Source: a virus
Lineage: Duplodnaviria > Heunggongvirae > Uroviricota > Caudoviricetes
Reading direction: 5' to 3' (one strand)
Virus record (IMG/VR): IMGVR_UViG_3300032116_012976
Length of the DNA: 64,000 nucleotides
The position numbers and the translations under genes are program-made. Shown here piece after piece: positions 8,932-48,278 of the stretch. The notes under the pieces are model-generated. The model worked only from the letters and a program-made list of their open reading frames with translations, searched no databases and was not told the DNA's origin. The stretch's first letter is position 1, and each line of letters starts with the position of its first letter.

Positions 8932-9575
8932 AAAATCAGTTACTCACAATAGGTGATAGCTTTACACATGGTGACGAATTGTCAGATGTGTATCAAGCCT
9001 GGCCCTATCGTCTGTCAGACAAACTAGGATACGAAGTCCACAATCTTGGACAGTCAGGGTGCAGTAACGCTAGTATTTTGCGTAGAACATTAGAAGAACT
9101 TGCGACCAATCATTATGATTTAGTTATTATAGGGTGGACTTATCCGGGTAGAATTGAATGGAAAGATGACATTGGCATAGCGTATGATTTATGGCCAGGT
9201 GTGCCCAACGATACTAAATTTTTTAAAGATCATCCTTGGAGAGTTGATTTTTTAAACTTTATAAGTCAACATCACAATTCTGCTTATCTATACCAACAGT
9301 ATCTGATACAAACAATTTTGTTGCAATCGTTTTGCCAAGTCAACAGCATTGATTATAGAATGTTAGATGTACAATGGCACAATTACTACAGAAAAGTTGG
9401 ATCAGAAATGCATGATAAGTTAGAAGCAAAAATAGATACAACAAAATTTATAGGTTGGCAAAAGTTTGGTATGAGAGAACTAGTGGCTGATTTACCAAAA
9501 GGTCCTCAAAATCATCCGCTAGAACAAGGACATGAGAGAATAGCAAATGAAATCGCAAAACATATTGGGAATTAG
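8928..9575 (+). CDS. SGNH/GDSL-family hydrolase
   Basis: N-terminal LLTIGDSFTHGDE (GDS block). C-terminal H in ...LEQGHERIANE. Confidence 0.6.
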   Translation: MKNQLLTIGDSFTHGDELSDVYQAWPYRLSDKLGYEVHNLGQSGCSNASILRRTLEELATNHYDLVIIGWTYPGRIEWKDDIGIAYDLWPGVPNDTKFFKDHPWRVDFLNFISQHHNSAYLYQQYLIQTILLQSFCQVNSIDYRMLDVQWHNYYRKVGSEMHDKLEAKIDTTKFIGWQKFGMRELVADLPKGPQNHPLEQGHERIANEIAKHIGN

Positions 9576-11037
9576 TGCAGGCTTTCATGACGCTGCCTTG
9601 ACCTTGTTAGACCAGCACGGCAAGATTGTGTTTGCCGGCCATTCAGAACGTTACAGCAAGCAAAAAAATGATGCTGATATTTCATCAGCCATGCTTGACG
9701 AAATTGACATGAGTCAGGTAGGTACCATTGCGTACTACGAACGTCCGTGGATGAAACAACTGCGTCAATGGTATGCAGGACAGGGTATTGAGTGGAACAA
9801 AGTAACCACAAGACAAATACTAGAGCAACAGCTTGGCGCTGACCAAGTCAATGGCAAACGCATTAAAAACTACAATCATCATTTGTGTCATGCTGCTGCT
9901 GGTTTTCAAACAAGCCCTTATCCCATAGCCACAGTGGTTGTGATAGATGCTGTGGGCGAATGGGACACAGTGTCAATCTGGGGAGCAATGTATGATAAAA
10001 ATCTTAAAGCAACGTATACTCGACTTTGGTCGCAGAGTTATCCACATTCAATTGGATTATTCTACAGTGCTATTACTAAGCGCATTGGCCTACACCCACT
10101 AGACGAAGAATACATCACCATGGGCATGGCCGGATGGGGAACACCTCGATGGACCGAAGTCATGCGTGATGTACTCGTGGACAATCCAGAACAACTGCGG
10201 TTTAGATCAAACTTACACACAGGACTTGATTCAAGTTTTTTAGATTGTGCAACCAATGAAGATATTGCTGCTTCGGCACAACAACTCACAGAGTATCTAA
10301 TACACCAAGTTATGACCAAGGCCAAAAACTTTGGGTGGAGTGACAACTTGGTTTACATGGGCGGAGTGGCGCTAAACTGTTTGGCCAATAGGAGGTTAGG
10401 TGAATACTTTGATAACATATGGATTATGCCTTGTCCTGGTGATGCTGGCAGTAGCCTGGGCGCCGCCGCTCTTGCACACGGCGGTTGTGTTCAGTGGACT
10501 AGTGCTAGTCTTGGCCATAATATACCTGGTGATTACCCTGTTTACAATGCCATGGCTGCTCTTCTCACTGATCGTATTGTGGGTGTGGCATCGGGCCGAG
10601 CAGAATTCGGACCCAGAGCCCTAGGCAATAGATCATTGCTAGCAGACCCCCGTGGCGCTGACATAAAAGACCAAGTGAATTCGATCAAACGCAGACAAAA
10701 ATTTAGACCTTTTGCCCCAGTTATTCTGGAGGAGTTGGCTGACGATTACTTTGATATGCCTCGTTGCTGGAGTGACAGTAGGTATATGCAAATTGTCGCT
10801 CGTTGCCGGCATCCTGACTTATTTCCCGCTGTTATTCATGTTGACGGCACTAGTCGTGTACAGACTGTGCCCCGCGACGGATCAGGCATAAGAAAGCTGT
10901 TGGAAGCATGGTACGCCGAGACAGGTTGCCCTATGTTGCTTAATACAAGTTTAAACATACGTGGGGAGCCAATGGTAAACGACAGAGCAGACGCAGACCG
11001 ATTTGAAACACTGTATGGTGTAAAGGTATGTTCATGA
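9547..11037 (+). CDS. carbamoyltransferase (NodU/CmcH family)
   Basis: ILGISAGFHDAALTLL, NHHLCHAAAGF, LNTSLNIRGEPMV are typical of O-carbamoyltransferases. Confidence 0.8.
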   Translation: MKSQNILGISAGFHDAALTLLDQHGKIVFAGHSERYSKQKNDADISSAMLDEIDMSQVGTIAYYERPWMKQLRQWYAGQGIEWNKVTTRQILEQQLGADQVNGKRIKNYNHHLCHAAAGFQTSPYPIATVVVIDAVGEWDTVSIWGAMYDKNLKATYTRLWSQSYPHSIGLFYSAITKRIGLHPLDEEYITMGMAGWGTPRWTEVMRDVLVDNPEQLRFRSNLHTGLDSSFLDCATNEDIAASAQQLTEYLIHQVMTKAKNFGWSDNLVYMGGVALNCLANRRLGEYFDNIWIMPCPGDAGSSLGAAALAHGGCVQWTSASLGHNIPGDYPVYNAMAALLTDRIVGVASGRAEFGPRALGNRSLLADPRGADIKDQVNSIKRRQKFRPFAPVILEELADDYFDMPRCWSDSRYMQIVARCRHPDLFPAVIHVDGTSRVQTVPRDGSGIRKLLEAWYAETGCPMLLNTSLNIRGEPMVNDRADADRFETLYGVKVCS

Positions 11038-40402: not shown

Positions 40403-41527
40403 ATGAACAAATATTGTCCAAAACCATTTGTTAGTATTCATATGTATACTGATAAAGATCTCAATCCAACTGTTAGGCCTTGTTGCAATTACAAACCTAT
40501 CAAGCAGTACGCAACGATTAATGATTATTTGCAATCATCTGAACTAGCGTCTCTTCAGCAACATTTGCTTACAAAAGAATCATTGCCAGATGGATGCAAG
40601 GCATGCAAAGTAGACGAAGATAATAACTTGCCTAGTATCCGAAACAAGTATATTAAAGTGTTTGAGCATGAAACCAAAACTAAAATTGTTGACTTGGAAA
40701 TTTTCCCTGGCAACGCATGTAATCTCAGTTGCTTGTCGTGCAATCCTTCTCATAGTACCAAATCAGGTCAGGAATATGCCAAACTTGGATGGATTAAACA
40801 ATCAATAGTGATCAATCACGAAGATCATGCACTTGAAGTTATTAAACAGTTGCCAGACCTTAAATCAATAGGTTTTATTGGCGGCGAATTTTTTGTAACC
40901 AAACACAATATTGAATTGCTCGATGCGGTTATTGAAAAAAATCTTAAAACACGAATTATTACCAATGCCACTCAACTAACCAAAAAACATCTTGAGCGGT
41001 TACAAAAAATATCTGACCTTGATGTGATGGTTAGTGTAGACGGTACTGGGCCAACATTTGAATTTTTACGCTATCCGGCACAATGGTCAGTTGTGCAATC
41101 AAACATTGTTGCACTACAACAGGCATTGCCCGGAGCAAAGATACATTTGTCGGCAGTGTTGCAATTTTTAAATTTGCAAAATATCATTGAACTGTTTGAA
41201 TACGCCAATGTCCGTCGACTGCCATTTAATGTGATCCCTTTATCTTATCCTGTTTGGCTACAGTCAGAAGTGCTTACCACTCTCGAACGTCAGCAGTTGA
41301 TTGCAGTTATACAAAAACAACTAACAGTTGCAAAACTTACCAAAACACAAAAACAGTTAATGACTGATACATGTAGTATGCTAGAAACAATACAGCACTC
41401 ACCTGCTCAACGAGAACAGTTTGTGTCTCGAACAAGCCAGCTGATTCGACTGCGCAACATCACACAACACACAATCAACTCAGTGTTTGGTGTGCTAGAA
41501 AATTTAGCGCAAGAAGTTATACAATAG
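40403..41527 (+). CDS. radical SAM enzyme (type B paralog) embedded in the tRNA array
   Basis: YCPKPFVSI...RPCC, CNLSCLSCN, IGGEFFV. Confidence 0.8.
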   Translation: MNKYCPKPFVSIHMYTDKDLNPTVRPCCNYKPIKQYATINDYLQSSELASLQQHLLTKESLPDGCKACKVDEDNNLPSIRNKYIKVFEHETKTKIVDLEIFPGNACNLSCLSCNPSHSTKSGQEYAKLGWIKQSIVINHEDHALEVIKQLPDLKSIGFIGGEFFVTKHNIELLDAVIEKNLKTRIITNATQLTKKHLERLQKISDLDVMVSVDGTGPTFEFLRYPAQWSVVQSNIVALQQALPGAKIHLSAVLQFLNLQNIIELFEYANVRRLPFNVIPLSYPVWLQSEVLTTLERQQLIAVIQKQLTVAKLTKTQKQLMTDTCSMLETIQHSPAQREQFVSRTSQLIRLRNITQHTINSVFGVLENLAQEVIQ

Positions 41528-42031: not shown

Positions 42032-42107
42032 TGGCTCCCCAGCGTGGGATCGAACCACGGACACCTTGATTAACAGTCAAGTGCAACTACCGCTGTGCTA
42101 CTAGGGA
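42032..42107 (-). tRNA. tRNA-Asn(GTT)
   Basis: Anticodon stem cttga/tcaag, loop CTGTTAA, G73, CCA encoded. Confidence 0.8.
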
Positions 42108-42400: not shown

Positions 42401-42408
42401 ATAATTTT

Positions 42409-42431
42409 AACACACTCTTGCGAATGTGTGT
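42409..42431 (-). ncRNA. GCAA-capped hairpin, minimal member of the clamp-stem family, 8 nt 5' of tRNA-Trp
   Basis: Minus strand acacattc-GCAA-gagtgtgt: 8 bp with one G:U. The same position is a C:A mismatch on the plus strand. Confidence 0.6.
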
Positions 42432-42432
42432 A

Positions 42433-42482
42433 TTAAAACATTCTAAACTACTTAGGCTGCCTGTTTGTAAAGAATGTTTTAA
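42433..42482 (-). ncRNA. 12-bp perfect clamp hairpin with 26-nt loop
   Basis: ttaaaacattct (42433..42444) pairs with agaatgttttaa (42471..42482). Confidence 0.5.
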
Positions 42483-42582
42483 TACGCTCGGATTTTTTTA
42501 TGTACAAGAACATAAGCCATCCCCGAGGCCGCCCATTTGTAGTTTAGAGTGATACAGGCTCGCGTTGCCGTTGCACTAAATG

Positions 42583-42610
42583 AAAAAACCCAGGGTTTTT
42601 ACGCCTGGGT
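42583..42610 (-). terminator. rho-independent terminator inside the ORF-free block
   Basis: acccagg...cctgggt hairpin followed, on the minus strand, by TTTTTT. Confidence 0.65.
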
Positions 42611-42818
42611 CCTTGGGTAAGATACGGTTGTATACTACTTAGGACCCTCTGCCTCCTGGAATGCTATTCATGCGACCATAGGCGTGTGACCAAACTGGTG
42701 TCTGGGCAAACTTGGGTAGCAGTGAACAATATTGTGTTTTCATCATAAGTCCTATTGTACAGTATTTACCTTTTGAGGTCAACCACTGTGTTAAAGTTAT
42801 TTAGCCTTTCGGCTGAAT

Positions 42819-42893
42819 TGGTTGCGGGGGAAGGAATCGAACCTCCGTCTCCCAGGTTATGAGCCTGGTGGTCTACCGCTGACGTACCCCGCG
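42819..42893 (-). tRNA. initiator tRNA-fMet(CAT)
   Basis: C1-A72 mismatch at the acceptor end (bacterial initiator hallmark), anticodon loop CTCATAA with a G-C-rich stem base, CCA encoded. Confidence 0.75.
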
Positions 42894-42904
42894 ATTGAAT
42901 TATT

Positions 42905-42986
42905 TATATAGAAACACACTCTATGCTTGGGGAACAATTCATTGAATTGAGCAACCACCAACGGGTACGGAGTGCGTTTGTATATA
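42905..42986 (-). ncRNA. clamp-stem element 11 nt 5' of tRNA-fMet (82 nt)
   Basis: Arms tatatagaaacacactc (42905..42921) and gagtgcgtttgtatata (42970..42986), 15 of 17 positions paired. Confidence 0.5.
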
Positions 42987-42993
42987 AAGTGGC

Positions 42994-44010
42994 GGACTGA
43001 GAATACATCCTAACCCAGTAACACCTCGGACATTATTACAAACCTTGCGAGTCTGCTTTCTTCCGATTTCCACTGCAACCATATTGCTATGTATCACAGT
43101 CTGTTACCAGTATCGCCGTTTTTAAAGACAGGCAGTAGTCTTGTCATCACATGCTACTCTACACCATCTATCCCGTTGACCTTTAGAGCCATTCACTGTC
43201 GCTAAACAGTTACGAAACTTCCAGTATAAACAGATTTCACCTTGCGAGTTACGTCTGACTGTATTGCCTTGCGGCTACAGCATTAGATACTTTTCACACA
43301 TGACCGAGTCAGTCTTTGCTTTTATGTTAGATAGTGGTTTTGAAGCCACAGCCTATTCCTTAACAGGGAATTGCTCTACGATGAGCTATATCAACCTACT
43401 GCGATGTGCTGACTCAGTTGCTTCATACTCTTTTGGAATACAAAATACAACACACCACGTTCCTTTTGTCTTGCGAACTACTCAGACGTCTTTTGCGATC
43501 AGTGTCGGGTCTCGGCTTTCGCGTACCTCCACCAACCACTCAAACTGCATACGAGCCCTTGGGTGCAACCCCTCGGACCGATACGCTACCCTTTCTCATA
43601 CCAATTAACTGGGCTGGTTTTGTATAGAAGTCAGCACCACCTGTTACTTTTCTGCAACTCCGGTTACCCTTGCGGGCCGGTAAGTTACAGCTCTTTCCTA
43701 TACTCCCAGCGTCATTGTTACAACCACCGGTCTTATCAGTGATCGGATCCTCACGGACCTGAGCAGGCTTGTTTACATGAACCATTGCTGGCGGACTTAT
43801 GTAGGCATACATCCTTTGGCTGGGTCACCCCAGTTATTCTTCGTACAGCTGGGCGAACCATACTGCACAGGACAATAAACTGCCCTATGTATCTATTGTA
43901 AGACAAACGTCTTTTGTTGTCAAACAGTTTTGGATAAATTTGTTGTTTATCTATCCAAAATAGTCTGTAACAGTTTTCTGCAGTCGTGTTACAGTGGGCA
44001 AATAAGTACC
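42994..44010 (-). ncRNA. candidate large structured ncRNA (~1 kb), class unknown (GOLLD/ROOL-like context)
   Basis: No credible ORF in an otherwise gene-dense window. Five CGCAAG (GCAA tetraloop) and two GTGA-capped hairpins on the minus strand, plus many local stems. Flanked by tRNAs. Confidence 0.4.
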
Positions 44011-44014
44011 CCAC

Positions 44015-44986
44015 ATGATCACTGAAATCTTAACCTATCACCACAGTCTCGACTGGAACATTGAACAATTCGTTGATAGCACATGTCTAGCAAACATTGT
44101 TCAGCCACACTGGCCAATGGTAACTTCTTCCAAAGGAGGATTGATACCAACAAATAAACCCAGCCGAGACTTTTTTGAGCTCAATAAAAAACGAGGACGT
44201 CCTACTGAACTTAGGAACAGTACCATTGACGCCTTGGTCAGTCTTGTGGCAACAAAATTGCATCTCAACGGATTTGTTACGAATGTGGTAGCAGAATGCA
44301 GTGGAAGCATGCATGCCTTGTACACTGCATCCATGGTGAGCTTGCAACACCAATTACCAGTGATTGTTTTTTGTGCTGATAATTTAGTTGATGACGAACT
44401 TCACATGTGGCGATTTGCCAGTATGGGTGCATTGGATCAATCCTCAGGAAGAGCATTTGACTCAACCAGTACTGGATTTCGAATGGGTAGAGGCATGGCT
44501 GCAATGTTGATAAAACATCCAAGTGTAAAATTCAACATGAGTGCATTTGCCACAATCAGCAATTATATCTTTCGTACCAACCCCACACTCATAGCCAATC
44601 CAGGTGATGCGCACCAATTGGCCAGAGATATTTCTGGCATCAATTTTGACACCATTGATTTTTGGAATGCACATGCAACAGGCACTCCAGTGGGAGATCA
44701 ATTTGAGTACAATGTTTTTAATTCTTTAGTTCACAAAGACATACCTATTGTCAGCTACAAAAGCCGCATAGGGCACTGTATCTCAGCCAGCGGCGCCATT
44801 GAAATGTGCATGAGTTTTGACGATTACCGTGCAAAAACCCTAAGACCCAATGTGTTAGCTGGTGATCTCATAGTCAAAGATTCAAGGATCATCGTAGATG
44901 CTGTGCCGTTTCCGGGCAAACGCATACTCAAGGCCAATTTTGGATTTGGCGGCAAAAACAGTTTTTGCCAAATTGACATTGAATAG
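44015..44986 (+). CDS. beta-ketoacyl-ACP synthase I/II-like (short, 323 aa)
   Basis: Cys-His-His triad context: AECSGSMHALY, NAHATGTPVGD, KSRIGHCISASGAIE. C-terminal FGFGGKNS. N-terminal region is shorter than FabB/FabF. No obvious RBS. Confidence 0.75.
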   Translation: MITEILTYHHSLDWNIEQFVDSTCLANIVQPHWPMVTSSKGGLIPTNKPSRDFFELNKKRGRPTELRNSTIDALVSLVATKLHLNGFVTNVVAECSGSMHALYTASMVSLQHQLPVIVFCADNLVDDELHMWRFASMGALDQSSGRAFDSTSTGFRMGRGMAAMLIKHPSVKFNMSAFATISNYIFRTNPTLIANPGDAHQLARDISGINFDTIDFWNAHATGTPVGDQFEYNVFNSLVHKDIPIVSYKSRIGHCISASGAIEMCMSFDDYRAKTLRPNVLAGDLIVKDSRIIVDAVPFPGKRILKANFGFGGKNSFCQIDIE

Positions 44987-44990
44987 ATTC

Positions 44991-45140
44991 TATAGTCAAG
45001 CACCGAGAGATGCTCAATTTATGCGTCCTCCGCTAAGAGTGCAATAGCCGATAGCAGTTATATTAGGATCCGTTCCCGGCCGGTTGGACCCGAATAGCGT
45101 AAGCGTCCTTACACGATACCTTTATCGGTGCTTGACTATA
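44991..45140. ncRNA. 150-nt element closed by a perfect 16-bp clamp, directly after the KAS stop codon
   Basis: tatagtcaagcaccga (44991..45006) pairs with tcggtgcttgactata (45125..45140). The interior has gc-GTAA-gc, ccggccgg and gcg/cgc stems. Confidence 0.45.
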
Positions 45141-45173
45141 AAAACTAAAAGTTCGGATTTGAAAATCAAATCC
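45141..45173 (-). terminator. possible terminator of the upstream minus-strand RNA
   Basis: ggatttga-aaa-tcaaatcc hairpin (45155..45173) followed, on the minus strand, by T-rich gaacTTTTagTTTTTat. Confidence 0.45.
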
Positions 45174-45590
45174 TCCCACTGCTAACTACTGCTTCCCAAT
45201 TTATCGTCCATCGGCACCCGTGGTAGGGCTTGCGATGCTCATCGGCCCTGAGTTCTGGCTCAGGTGATCCTTGGGATAGGACTGCTGGGCCTTGTCCTGC
45301 CCAGCATCAGGAAAATTAGTTGCTCTGCATCCCCCGGCGGTAATTGTAGTGCATCATCTCTTGGGTTGCCCCGCAATTCTCACACACCTTCCACCCGCTT
45401 CCCGACAGGGACCGCTATCGTGTTGCTAACGGCCTTTCGGTAAGAAGACTACCACCCTTGAGAGTCACCTCACTTCTTATCCTGCGGGTCACAGTATCCG
45501 CTAACCAAGCGGAACGTCGGGGAGAAGCCACGGTTGCAGGACCTAGTGCTCTTGCGAGGAAGTGTCCAGGCGATGTGGCTTCAAACTTGA
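45174..45590 (-). ncRNA. candidate structured ncRNA (~420 nt), class unknown
   Basis: ORF-free. Hairpins cctgag/ctcagg, tgctggg/cccagca, agggc/gccct, tccgc/gcgga. Two more CGCAAG on the minus strand (plus CTTGCG at 45229 and 45551). Confidence 0.35.
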
Positions 45591-45679
45591 GGCATCATGT
45601 GGGATTCGAACCCACGCAAGAAAACCTTGATGATCATTCAAGGTTGAAGCAAACCACACTCCGTTACATCCTATGACGC
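45591..45679 (-). ncRNA. tRNA-like element A (89 nt; canonical acceptor and T arm, non-canonical core, no CCA)
   Basis: GCGTCAT...GTGGG TTCGAAT CCCAC ATGATGC C. The core is an 8-bp hairpin with loop ATGATCA. No D-arm could be folded. Confidence 0.4.
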
Positions 45680-45687
45680 CATAAACT

Positions 45688-45778
45688 TGGTGGACAACAA
45701 TGGGAATCTAACCCACTTCTTCCTCGTATGCTATTACGAAGTTTCATACCAGCCTCAGGTAATTGACACATCATGTCC
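45688..45778 (-). ncRNA. tRNA-like element B (91 nt; degenerate)
   Basis: T-arm GTGGG TTAGATT CCCAT, 5-bp acceptor, CCA encoded. No canonical anticodon arm (7-bp stem CTTCGTA/TACGAGG with a 6-nt loop). Confidence 0.35.
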
Positions 45779-45785
45779 ATAAACT

Positions 45786-46656: not shown

Positions 46657-47547
46657 TTAGAACTGTACGACCAACCCGCCTGCTACTTGTTTGACATCAG
46701 TGGCTGCTGAGGTTCCCTCAACTGTACGATACAAAACTTGTGCATAGGTCTTTTTGCTGAAAGCATACTCAGCACCTACGTTGTAACTCTTGATGCCATT
46801 TTCAATGCGACCATAGCTGGCCTTCACTGTGACTGGTCCACCAAGTTTGTGTGCCACGCCGACCAACTGAGCACGGTTGGTGTTGGCAGCAACGCCTTTG
46901 TTGTCGCTTGCGCTGGCAAACACAGTGGTTGCACCAAATTTAGCACGAGCAGCCAACACGTCACTGGTTTCTGCGCCAGCTTCGTAACGAGCATAAGTCA
47001 ACACAGCAGGTCCAACTGCGGCAATCACGGATGCGGCATAAGGATCAGCGGCAGTGCCAACAGCACCAGTGCTACGATCAAAGTTAGCAGAGACATTGCC
47101 AAAGTTCACAGAAGTGAAAGCGGCATTGCTCAAACGCAAACCACGCAGGTTATGCACGTCGGCAGCTGAGCTACCAATCAATGTGCCAAATGGATCATTG
47201 TCGCTGATGGCCAAGAAGTGAGTGTGAACATTGCGACCAAGATCAACGCTACCCATTTTGTGAGCAATACCCACGGTGCTTTGGCGATCGCCAAGTCTAG
47301 TGTCAGTACCAGTGTCTGGGCTGTTGGCTTGGATGCCGGTCTCGTATGTGGCACGAGCTGTTAATCCGCCACCTAAGTTTTCAGTAGCACGAATGCCAAA
47401 GTGACTCAAGTCATTGGCCATGCCTTGCACGGTGGAAGCACCAGTTTTGGTGTTGTCAAGGTAAGTGCCAACACGACCATAGATACCAACTTGTGCGCTT
47501 GCAACACCAGCAACTGCCAGGGTCAACGCAATTAGAACTTTCTTCAT
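46657..47547 (-). CDS. outer-membrane porin (Gram-negative trimeric porin family)
   Basis: Signal peptide MKKVLIALTLAVAGVASAQV, alternating beta-strand pattern, C-terminal ...GGLVVQF with terminal Phe. RBS aaggaaa. Confidence 0.8.
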   Translation of the reverse strand: MKKVLIALTLAVAGVASAQVGIYGRVGTYLDNTKTGASTVQGMANDLSHFGIRATENLGGGLTARATYETGIQANSPDTGTDTRLGDRQSTVGIAHKMGSVDLGRNVHTHFLAISDNDPFGTLIGSSAADVHNLRGLRLSNAAFTSVNFGNVSANFDRSTGAVGTAADPYAASVIAAVGPAVLTYARYEAGAETSDVLAARAKFGATTVFASASDNKGVAANTNRAQLVGVAHKLGGPVTVKASYGRIENGIKSYNVGAEYAFSKKTYAQVLYRTVEGTSAATDVKQVAGGLVVQF

Positions 47548-47595: not shown

Positions 47596-47625
47596 ATTAT
47601 ATAGCACAAACACTGAGAATGTCAA
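47596..47625 (-). promoter_or_regulatory. sigma70-type promoter TTGACA-N18-TATAAT for the porin gene
   Basis: Minus strand: ttgacattctcagtgtttgtgctaTATAAT. Confidence 0.55.
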
Positions 47626-47651
47626 AGAAAATGGCTACTTTCGCAGCCATT
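47622..47651 (-). terminator. terminator at the end of the tmRNA coding piece
   Basis: aatggct-gcgaaagt-agccatt hairpin followed, on the minus strand, by ttttcttt. Confidence 0.65.
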
Positions 47652-47813
47652 TTGGTGGTTTCTGTTACGAGGTATTTCCTACCCTAGACGACCTTAAGCG
47701 GCCATCAAGAATTTTTCATCATTTGCAGATAAAAGTTTTGCTTGATTTACGGTCATCGCCTACCGTGCTGTCCACTCTGTTACTCTTTGCCCTGTCGAAT
47801 CTAGGTCAGGCCC
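47630..47813 (-). ncRNA. ssrA: tmRNA coding piece (two-piece / permuted ssrA)
   Basis: Starts GGGCCTGACCTAGATTCGAC (compare the standard GGGGCUGAUUCUGGAUUCGAC). Contains the tag frame. The 3' boundary is approximate. Confidence 0.8.
47694..47726 (-). other. ssrA: tmRNA tag reading frame ANDEKFLMAA*
   Basis: GCA AAT GAT GAA AAA TTC TTG ATG GCC GCT TAA. The ANDE...AA pattern is typical of proteobacterial tags. Confidence 0.8.
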
Positions 47814-48028
47814 ATCATAAAGAAACTTAATCTACGCTTAATGTTGTTAACAACAAGCATAATATTGGAAAAACAATTAATAAAAATTTTGCTAAATTTT
47901 CCATATTACCATAACTCACAGTTTTTTATTTTCTCTTCGTCCAATGTGGTATCACGTGTAAAATAAAATACACCAAACACTAACCAAAATAACAAAAATA
48001 AAACATAACCTATCATTAAACTTCCTTA

Positions 48029-48093
48029 TGGTGGACCTGGGGGGATTCGCACCCCCGTCCAGAACACTTTTCTCTCGGCTTCATACAGCAATA
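48029..48093 (-). ncRNA. ssrA: tmRNA acceptor piece (T-arm + 3' acceptor strand + ACCA)
   Basis: ...GGAC GGGGG TGCGAAT CCCCC CAGGTCC A CCA. Pairs with GGGCCTG of the coding piece, giving G3:U70. The 5' boundary is inferred from the promoter. Confidence 0.75.
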
Positions 48094-48099
48094 ACTCGC

Positions 48100-48128
48100 A
48101 GTATATATTTATTCTTTGGGCTTGTCAA
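48100..48128 (-). promoter_or_regulatory. sigma70-type promoter TTGACA-N17-TATACT for the tmRNA precursor
   Basis: Minus strand: ttgacaagcccaaagaataaataTATACT. Confidence 0.6.
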
Positions 48129-48278
48129 CTGCTTTGGAGATGATGTCATACACTTGTGCGTATGCATCAGTAATTTTGTCTAGTTGTTGTTCCGACACCA
48201 AGTCTGTGTCCTCCAGACTGACCAAGTCTCGGGCTAGATTTTCTTGTAGTTTTTTTATGGGATTGAGCACATACCTAT

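Follow-up and report, generated by a model that had tools for sequence, protein, structure and literature searches.

RNAs of the GOLLD family have been known since 2009, and structures were solved in 2025. Members of this family carry a 3′ region conserved in all of them and a 5′ region that is less well conserved, often total more than 800 nucleotides (nt), and are encoded in phages and prophages near islands of tRNA genes (PMC12286853, PMC12990946, PMC5737381). Here we describe a GOLLD RNA encoded in a 64,000-nt stretch of viral DNA (IMG/VR virus record IMGVR_UViG_3300032116_012976, Caudoviricetes), hereafter called the window. A first-pass annotation, made by a model from the letters without database searches, had singled out positions 42994-44014 as a candidate large ornate RNA lying within an array of tRNA genes.

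Published GOLLD RNAs combine a variable 5′ domain and a conserved 3′ domain in a single RNA of 700-833 nt or more (PMC12990946, PMC12286853). The env-38 representative forms a D7 14-mer of 380 Å (PMC12286853). The representative from Streptococcus agalactiae assembles as a 12-mer, or mainly as a 10-mer when reduced to its 3′ domain (PMC12990946). In the solved structures, rings are built from 3′ domains, caps formed by the 5′ domains fix the stoichiometry, and a linker faces the lumen (PMC12990946, PMC12286853). tRNAs are "sometimes present" in this linker, and the roles that have been considered for GOLLD include enclosing tRNAs or other cargo, or keeping them in "inhibited storage" (PMC12286853, PMC12990946).

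A GOLLD RNA in the tRNA array

The whole window was scanned against Rfam 15 at gathering thresholds, a check that the first-pass annotation had itself proposed. The only match that is neither a tRNA nor a transfer-messenger RNA (tmRNA) is to GOLLD (RF02032), on the minus strand at 42994-43458. At 204.1 bits (E value of 3.5e-56), this match exceeds the gathering score of 150, and it is full length, covering model positions 1-416 of 416. The expectation that the tRNA strand encodes a large, ornate, structured RNA, with GOLLD and ROOL as the obvious comparisons, was therefore borne out. It had also been suggested that the block could equally represent a new class. We consider an RNA class unrelated to known families to be exceedingly improbable, given the strength of the full-length match and the fact that all 13 of the 13 relatives scanned with Rfam likewise exceed the GOLLD threshold (174-238 bits); nothing is left in favor of a new class. 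A curated family accounts for the block, which is an ordinary member of this already known family, and the possible new class is thereby removed.

The phage tRNA-array context is also common to ROOL RNAs (PMC5737381), and another known large RNA might be considered on these grounds. However, a permissive rescan of positions 42700-44300 on both strands at an E value of ≤1 returned only two tRNA matches in addition to GOLLD. ROOL, HEARO, group I and group II introns, and RNase P RNA gave no match in this interval on either strand with these permissive filters, and we attach next to no weight to an identity among these classes.

The RF02032 model spans only the conserved 3′ domain of GOLLD. Given the two-region layout that has been published for the family, the sequence from 43459 to 44014 is expected to correspond to the 5′ domain plus upstream sequence. 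The best explanation overall is that the minus strand encodes a complete GOLLD RNA with a structured 5′ domain of ~430 nt and a conserved 3′ domain of ~465 nt, and we place the probability of this reading at about 0.93. The features of this RNA and its neighborhood are collected in Table 1. The RNA is located in phage DNA, among 30 tRNAs and a tmRNA arrayed on the same strand, in agreement with the context known for the family. Likewise, its length of about 895 nt, with a contiguous structured 5′ domain, corresponds to the ~700-900 nt expected for GOLLD. Thermodynamics alone would not have been convincing, as the single-sequence minimum free energy of the whole RNA has a z score of -2.3.

Table 1. 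Features of the GOLLD RNA locus in the window
Feature	Position	Strand	Remarks
Complete GOLLD RNA, about 895 nt	42994-43888	-	5′ end placed from the -10 box; 3′ end is the Rfam model end
Variable 5′ domain	43461-43886	-	19 covarying helices plus the 5′-terminal hairpin
5′-terminal hairpin, AGGGCAG...GUCCUG	43886-43868	-	Covaries by eye in alignments A1 and A2
First long hairpin of the 3′ domain, CAAAA loop	43401-43458	-	Rfam model positions 1-62
Variable linker	43305-43400	-	Falls at about positions 63-135 of the Rfam model, which are unpaired and rich in insertions
3′-domain core	42994-43304	-	Pseudoknot helix; GNRA hairpins with CGCAAG at 43268, 43241, and 43044; terminal hairpin
Terminal hairpin, UGUAUUCUCAG loop	43010-42994	-	Within the 3′-domain core
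Degenerate tRNA-Asn(GUU)-like element	43325-43395	-	Rfam tRNA, 50.6 bits versus a threshold of 29
Sigma-70-type promoter (predicted)	43895-43923	-	TTGACA 43923-43918, 17-nt spacer, TACAAT 43900-43895; 11 of 12 consensus positions
tRNA-Met(CAU)	42819-42893	-	100 nt downstream of GOLLD; ARAGORN and Rfam
Terminator-like hairpin plus U6 run	42578-42614	-	-18.5 kcal/mol, z score of -2.96; ~9-nt loop
Porin (Porin_4, E value of 3e-25), Gram-negative type	46657-47547	-	Inside the tRNA array
Truncated ketoacyl synthase (KAS)-like gene (Pfam Ketoacyl-synt)	44015-44986	+	Inside the tRNA array
Radical SAM enzyme	40403-41527	+	Inside the tRNA array

Some of the sequence features that had been reported for the block can be assigned to parts of this RNA. 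The five plus-strand CTTGCG hexamers (CGCAAG in the RNA) were found exactly where they had been listed, at 43044, 43241, 43268, 43470, and 43669. Their rarity also held up, because only ~0.215 copies are expected per strand in 1,021 nt and the Poisson probability of seeing five is ~3e-6. Over both strands of the whole window, there are 42 copies of this hexamer versus 27.0 expected from dinucleotide shuffles. Both of the GUGA-capped hairpins that had been described are present on the minus strand (43833-43820 and 43759-43746). In the covariation alignment presented below, each listed CGCAAG site and each GUGA hairpin forms the loop of a conserved helix. The site at 43669 is the GCAA loop of a hairpin at 43680-43660 and falls, together with the site at 43470, within the 5′ domain; those at 43268, 43241, and 43044 are the three GNRA hairpins of the 3′ domain. 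A further hairpin that had been counted as part of the RNA (ctgtaaca/tgttacag, 43965-43994) proved to lie outside it, upstream of the promoter and in the divergent intergenic region ahead of the KAS-like gene. This hairpin is weak (-7.3 kcal/mol), with a z score of -2.1 for the minus strand and of -0.7 for the plus strand.

The block had also been described as poor in open reading frames (ORFs). Its frames are indeed short, but the block is not ORF-free, with ORFs of 52-114 amino acids on both strands. These ORFs, along with a 90-amino-acid product listed by the Joint Genome Institute (JGI) gene calling, are what speaks for a decayed coding region or a region encoding a small protein. However, none of the ORFs of the block matches Pfam at the curated cutoff, and the two matches seen at an E value of ≤1 reach 14.5 bits versus a cutoff of 35 and 10.9 bits versus a cutoff of 27. 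Furthermore, the frame is broken in most relatives and the substitutions preserve base pairs, such that a coding origin has almost no likelihood in our view. The JGI-annotated ORF itself (43540-43812, minus strand; 9526-9798 in the related contig L118) lies within the GOLLD 5′ domain and is a spurious call, its frame not being conserved in most relatives. Most relatives have two to nine in-frame stops, only the terminal stop is present in the window and in relatives L020 and L028, and the length of the segment differs by a non-multiple of 3 in 16 of the 23 aligned relatives.

Related loci and covariation in both domains

Relatives of the RNA were collected with a degenerate pattern composed of three GOLLD anchors (GAAA-N5-CUAAU ... 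CGCAAG ... AGAGUAG). This pattern occurs at no fewer than 104 viral loci (≥104) in IMG/VR and at six loci in 185,579 GTDB species genomes, from which we conclude that this GOLLD subfamily is mostly viral. Approximately 35 of the pattern loci align with both halves of the RNA by blastn (65-91% identity), from ~43900-43840 down to ~42995, and according to blastn and MAFFT, the relatives are co-linear with the window from about 43886 to about 42990. They sit on IMG/VR contigs of up to about 500 kilobases (kb) that carry tRNA arrays.

Other search handles were less productive. A 26-nt pattern specific to the window retrieved nothing from IMG/VR, and when the block was compared with 50,697 deposited phage genomes by blastn, only a tRNA-like match of 154 nt appeared. 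With no GOLLD relative among those phage genomes, the RNA has no cultured close relative. The adjacent KAS-like gene likewise retrieved nothing from IMG/VR, and its homologues at 53-59% identity have no adjoining GOLLD; synteny is thus not conserved. The only metagenome contigs with the exact KAS-like protein were near-identical ones, up to 205 kb long, which are useless for covariation.

Covariation was assessed in an alignment (A2) of 24 sequences, consisting of the window and 23 relatives from viral contigs. RNAalifold predicts 209 base pairs for this alignment, and 151 of them show a compensatory double change in at least one sequence, as do 73 of the 99 pairs in the part outside the Rfam model. 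The covariation in related contigs that the first-pass annotation had proposed to look for is therefore present. For the 5′ domain, pairing was tested over alignment columns 94-512 (window 43833-43461), where the 99 pairs are arranged in 19 helices. These pairs are formed in 97.8% of cases versus 34-41% when the 3′ partners are slid by one to three columns, and the observed values were reached by none of 500 column shuffles. In the 5′-terminal hairpin, the fifth pair is C-G, G-C, or A-U depending on the relative. A full-length GOLLD RNA, followed from promoter to end, and an alignment of 24 sequences thus provide covariation support for a 5′ domain that is absent from the Rfam model.

Every helix of the 3′ domain also covaries. 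The first long hairpin corresponds to alignment pairs 515-525/562-572 and 529-536/544-551, both covarying. The pseudoknot helix annotated by Rfam (43304-43296 with 43154-43146; columns 680-688 with 832-840) shows double changes in up to 13 of the 24 sequences per pair. The pseudoknot and the junctions of the 3′ domain are able to form in the RNA from the window.

The two domains might nonetheless belong to different RNAs, with only 42994-43458 being GOLLD and the upstream 430 nt being either a structured RNA in its own right or a processed leader that travels along in this lineage. The Rfam model does cover the 3′ half alone, MAFFT does not align the 5′ half with the env-38 5′ domain, the two halves are separate three-dimensional domains in the solved structure (PMC12286853), and the only link between the halves predicted by RNAalifold is a weak one of 3 base pairs (bp; columns 64-66 with 875-877). 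However, the halves are contiguous in all 23 of the 23 relatives, with a junction fixed at 2 nt (43461 to 43458). A promoter or upstream tRNA always lies to the 5′ side of the first half; none separates the halves. Moreover, GOLLD is defined in the literature by the presence of both domains in one RNA (PMC12990946, PMC12286853). We therefore judge separate RNAs to be very unlikely and treat the two halves as domains of one complete GOLLD RNA.

Predicted ends and transcription of the RNA

The candidate promoter upstream of the 5′ domain is conserved in position. The sequence TTGAC...TAnAAT occupies the same alignment columns in relatives L122, L044, L088, L020, L002, L028, L043, and L045, and other relatives have a tRNA gene directly upstream of GOLLD in place of a promoter. 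Because promoter-like sites are not enriched in the region (4 found versus 3.3 expected), a function for the site at 43923-43895 is deduced from the quality of its match and from its positional conservation. These features suggest that this GOLLD RNA is transcribed from its own strong sigma-70-type promoter. The position of the promoter puts the 5′ end of the RNA near 43888. The block as first delimited therefore extended ~125 nt too far at its upper edge (44014).

At the other end, an automatic scan found no terminator between GOLLD and the tRNA-Met gene, and a tRNA is also found 3′ of GOLLD in the relatives, within about 0-120 nt. GOLLD and the downstream tRNA-Met are probably co-transcribed. 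The terminator-like hairpin beyond the tRNA is a candidate for the end of this GOLLD-tRNA-Met transcription unit; the automatic scan, which was limited to loops of 3-8 nt, missed it, and the loop of ~9 nt is our own reading. The simplest reading of this arrangement is that GOLLD would be released by tRNA-processing nucleases after co-transcription. Both co-transcription with tRNAs and release by nucleases have already been suggested for the GOLLD family (PMC5737381).

The same hairpin is part of a 418-nt spacer between tRNA-Met and tRNA-Trp (42401-42818, minus strand) that is shared with contig L044 at 69% identity. This spacer also holds a second promoter-like site (42782-42754) and a 47-amino-acid ORF.

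A tRNA-like insert in the linker

The unpaired linker after the first 3′-domain hairpin holds a tRNA-like insert. Its anticodon loop, CUGUUAA, reads GUU (Asn), and the insert still folds as a cloverleaf, with a bulge in its acceptor stem. ARAGORN called no tRNA at the insert in either the window or the 96.5%-identical contig L122. Comparison with the intact copy in relative L044 reveals several lesions. The D loop is AUCGUA versus AUUGGUA in the intact copy, with loss of the GG. The T arm is GUGGC-UUCAAAA-CCAC versus GUGGG-UUCAAAU-CCCAC, with loss of the G53-C61 pair and a 1-nt deletion, such that a 4-bp stem carries an 8-nt loop. Features of functional tRNAs are missing, namely, the D-loop G18G19, the G53-C61 pair, a 7-nt T loop, and a 7-bp acceptor stem free of bulges. 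The Rfam tRNA score is also the lowest of the set (50.6 bits versus 52.7-64 in the relatives). Given these degenerate features and the presence of a canonical tRNA-Asn(GUU) elsewhere in the array (42032-42107), we read the insert as a redundant tRNA in decay, for which putative tRNA-derived pseudo-tRNA is the most fitting description.

The linkers of the relatives differ widely in content. ARAGORN calls a linker tRNA in 14 relatives (six Asn-GUU, three Lys-UUU, three Arg-UCU, one Thr-UGU, and one Pro-UGG), and five relatives (L003, L091, L040, L073, and L041) have a short linker with no tRNA, the linkers of the others being tRNA-bearing in the alignment. The tRNA bodies in L020 (1613-1684, Lys) and L043 (2735-2807, Asn) look identical except for G34/U34 when the A2 rows are read by eye. 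This pair, along with the variety among the other relatives, points to anticodon switching of a cage-tethered tRNA, as judged from the aligned sequences.

One could go further and propose that this lineage forms a distinct GOLLD subtype, in which the 5′ cap cannot be aligned to env-38, the linker tRNA switches anticodons and is decaying in the window, and the scaffold is under strong purifying and compensatory selection. We regard this proposal as doubtful. If it were true, the lineage would offer a natural series in which the cargo is full, swapped, dead, or empty and which could test whether GOLLD cages store or present tRNAs. Relatives whose linker tRNA is intact, anticodon-switched, degenerate, or absent bear on the question of what GOLLD nanocages are for.

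Genome context and other elements of the array

Together, ARAGORN and Rfam place 30 tRNAs on one strand of the window, along with a permuted tmRNA. PHROG matches are few (an ATPase, an exonuclease, and a nucleotide-sugar epimerase). The metabolic genes include those for radical SAM enzymes, a carbamoyltransferase, an asparagine synthase, and the KAS-like enzyme, and there is also a porin gene; a fatty-acid desaturase and a Band_7 protein are encoded on neighboring contigs. As auxiliary cargo of a phage, the porin, KAS-like, and radical SAM genes are unusual. A Gram-negative host is hinted at by the porin, and the window most likely derives from a large uncultivated phage.

The tmRNA is of the permuted, two-piece type (47603-48132, minus strand; Rfam tmRNA_permuted, 115 bits), lies in the tRNA array, encodes the tag peptide ANDEKFLMAA, and is also present in L122.

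The minus strand also holds, at about 45516-45335, a second structured RNA that is conserved and measures about 180-210 nt; it lies in an ORF-free stretch (44987-45785) flanked by the KAS-like gene and tRNA-Asp. Among the matches listed, more than 117 IMG/VR contigs contain its 23-nt core, GGTCCCNGTCGGGAAGCGGGTGGA. In 40 diverse copies, the 42 predicted pairs are 96.4% paired versus 40-49% when slid, and 25 pairs exhibit double changes. Among the matches listed, 115 of 124 loci place this RNA inside a same-strand tRNA array, and in 58 of these loci, it lies within 20 nt (≤20 nt) of a tRNA 3′ end, most often that of tRNA-Tyr or tRNA-Ser. It has no match in Rfam even at an E value of ≤10. This looks like an undescribed RNA associated with tRNA arrays and a more novel one than the GOLLD finding.

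The surrounding 611 nt (44990-45600, minus strand) fold better than shuffled sequences (z score of -3.8, 20 shuffles). Near 45135/44995 in this region, a closing stem of 16 bp, UAUAGUCAAGCACCGA / UCGGUGCUUGACUAUA, surrounds ~130 nt, and this 3′ part is common to L044 at 88% identity. The region may be either one RNA or several.

Two degenerate tRNA-like units follow tRNA-Asp at ~45785-45684 and 45679-45591 (minus strand). Each has a T-arm-like sequence, GGGUU(A/C)GAUUCCC, followed by an identical AAGUUURWRG spacer. Rfam gives the second unit a tRNA score of 20 bits, and ARAGORN calls neither. The units at 45785-45591 look like tRNA gene remnants or noncanonical tRNA-like RNAs.

Further upstream, 46369-46153 (minus strand, 5′ of tRNA-Glu) contains a perfect 13-bp long-range stem, AAACACAUUAGGG / CCCUAAUGUGUUU, around ~190 nt of ORF-free sequence. 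Its fold has a z score of -1.7, it is conserved only in near-identical contigs, and it has no Rfam match. Direct repeats of ~27 nt (gcuauacuaga..aguuagaaaa) occur at 46576-46550 and 46481-46455 (minus strand), downstream of the terminator-like hairpin of the porin gene (about 46640-46606). By eye, each repeat overlaps a TATACT box resembling a -10 element, and the pair look like candidate tandem promoters for the tRNA-Glu/Asp unit.

Proposed assembly and comparison with known systems

By analogy with the solved env-38 and S. agalactiae GOLLD RNAs, the RNA from the window most likely self-assembles without protein into a closed nanocage, and homology with these RNAs would favor a 12- to 14-mer. 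In such a cage, the 3′ domains would form rings, the 5′ domains would form caps, and the linker with its tRNA-like insert would point into the lumen. The purpose of the cage might be to sequester or present tRNAs, or to enclose other cargo during lytic growth.

Several points weigh against a complete GOLLD RNA that behaves in this manner. Nanocage assembly is extrapolated from two solved homologues. The stoichiometry, and even cage closure, would follow from the same analogy, and it is the 5′ domain that sets stoichiometry in the solved structures. MAFFT gave no convincing alignment of the 5′ half with that of env-38 (P1-P13), for which the copy used was recovered from a supplement by optical character recognition (816 of 833 nt). 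A candidate for the intermolecular kissing loop known from published work, CUACUGCC (43137-43130), is invariant in the subfamily and hence carries no covariation signal. AGUAG at 43400-43396 is complementary by eye to CUACU at 43138-43134, and six relatives mismatch at one position. Finally, we infer the 5′ end of the RNA, its co-transcription, and its processing.

One of the known systems compared here is ROOL (RF03087). Like GOLLD, ROOL RNAs are large, ornate, encoded by phages or prophages adjoining tRNA islands, and assembled into RNA-only nanocages (PMC12286853, PMC5737381). However, their sequence and fold are unrelated, and no ROOL match is present in the window.

The S. agalactiae GOLLD (12-mer, PDB 9L0R; 3′-domain 10-mer, PDB 9LMF) belongs to the same family as the RNA from the window and exhibits the ring and cap behavior (PMC12990946). 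When the two are set side by side by description, the S. agalactiae RNA differs in its length of 700 nt, in lacking several 5′ helices, and in its location in a Gram-positive chromosome or prophage.

The GOLLD RNAs of Mycobacterium/Mycolicibacterium, as Morgado et al. (2020) are summarized in PMC12990946, likewise have a tRNA in the linker and lie in a tRNA array. There, the embedded tRNA is tRNA-Phe, whereas the insert is Asn-like in the window and an Asn, Lys, Arg, Thr, or Pro tRNA in its relatives. The type of host genome also differs, and the copy in the window is without the D-loop GG and the T-arm G53-C61 pair.

The env-38 RNA from a marine metagenome (14-mer by cryo-electron microscopy, PDB 9MEE; Kretsch et al. 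2025, PMC12286853) is a member of the same Rfam family. The two RNAs share the two-domain layout, an adjoining tRNA-Met gene, and a 3′ domain with a first long hairpin and then a linker, a pseudoknot, GNRA hairpins, and, at its end, a loop of the UGUAAUCUCAG type; env-38 is 833 nt long versus about 895 nt here. Their 5′ domains share only a motif of the GGGUGGUGCCG type, as compared with the 816 of 833 nt of env-38 recovered by character recognition, and in the lineage of the window, the 3′ domain is immediately preceded by ~150 nt of additional covarying helices (43586-43461). In place of the disordered 42-nt linker loop (nt 497-538) found in the interior of the env-38 cage, the RNA described here carries its tRNA-like insert.

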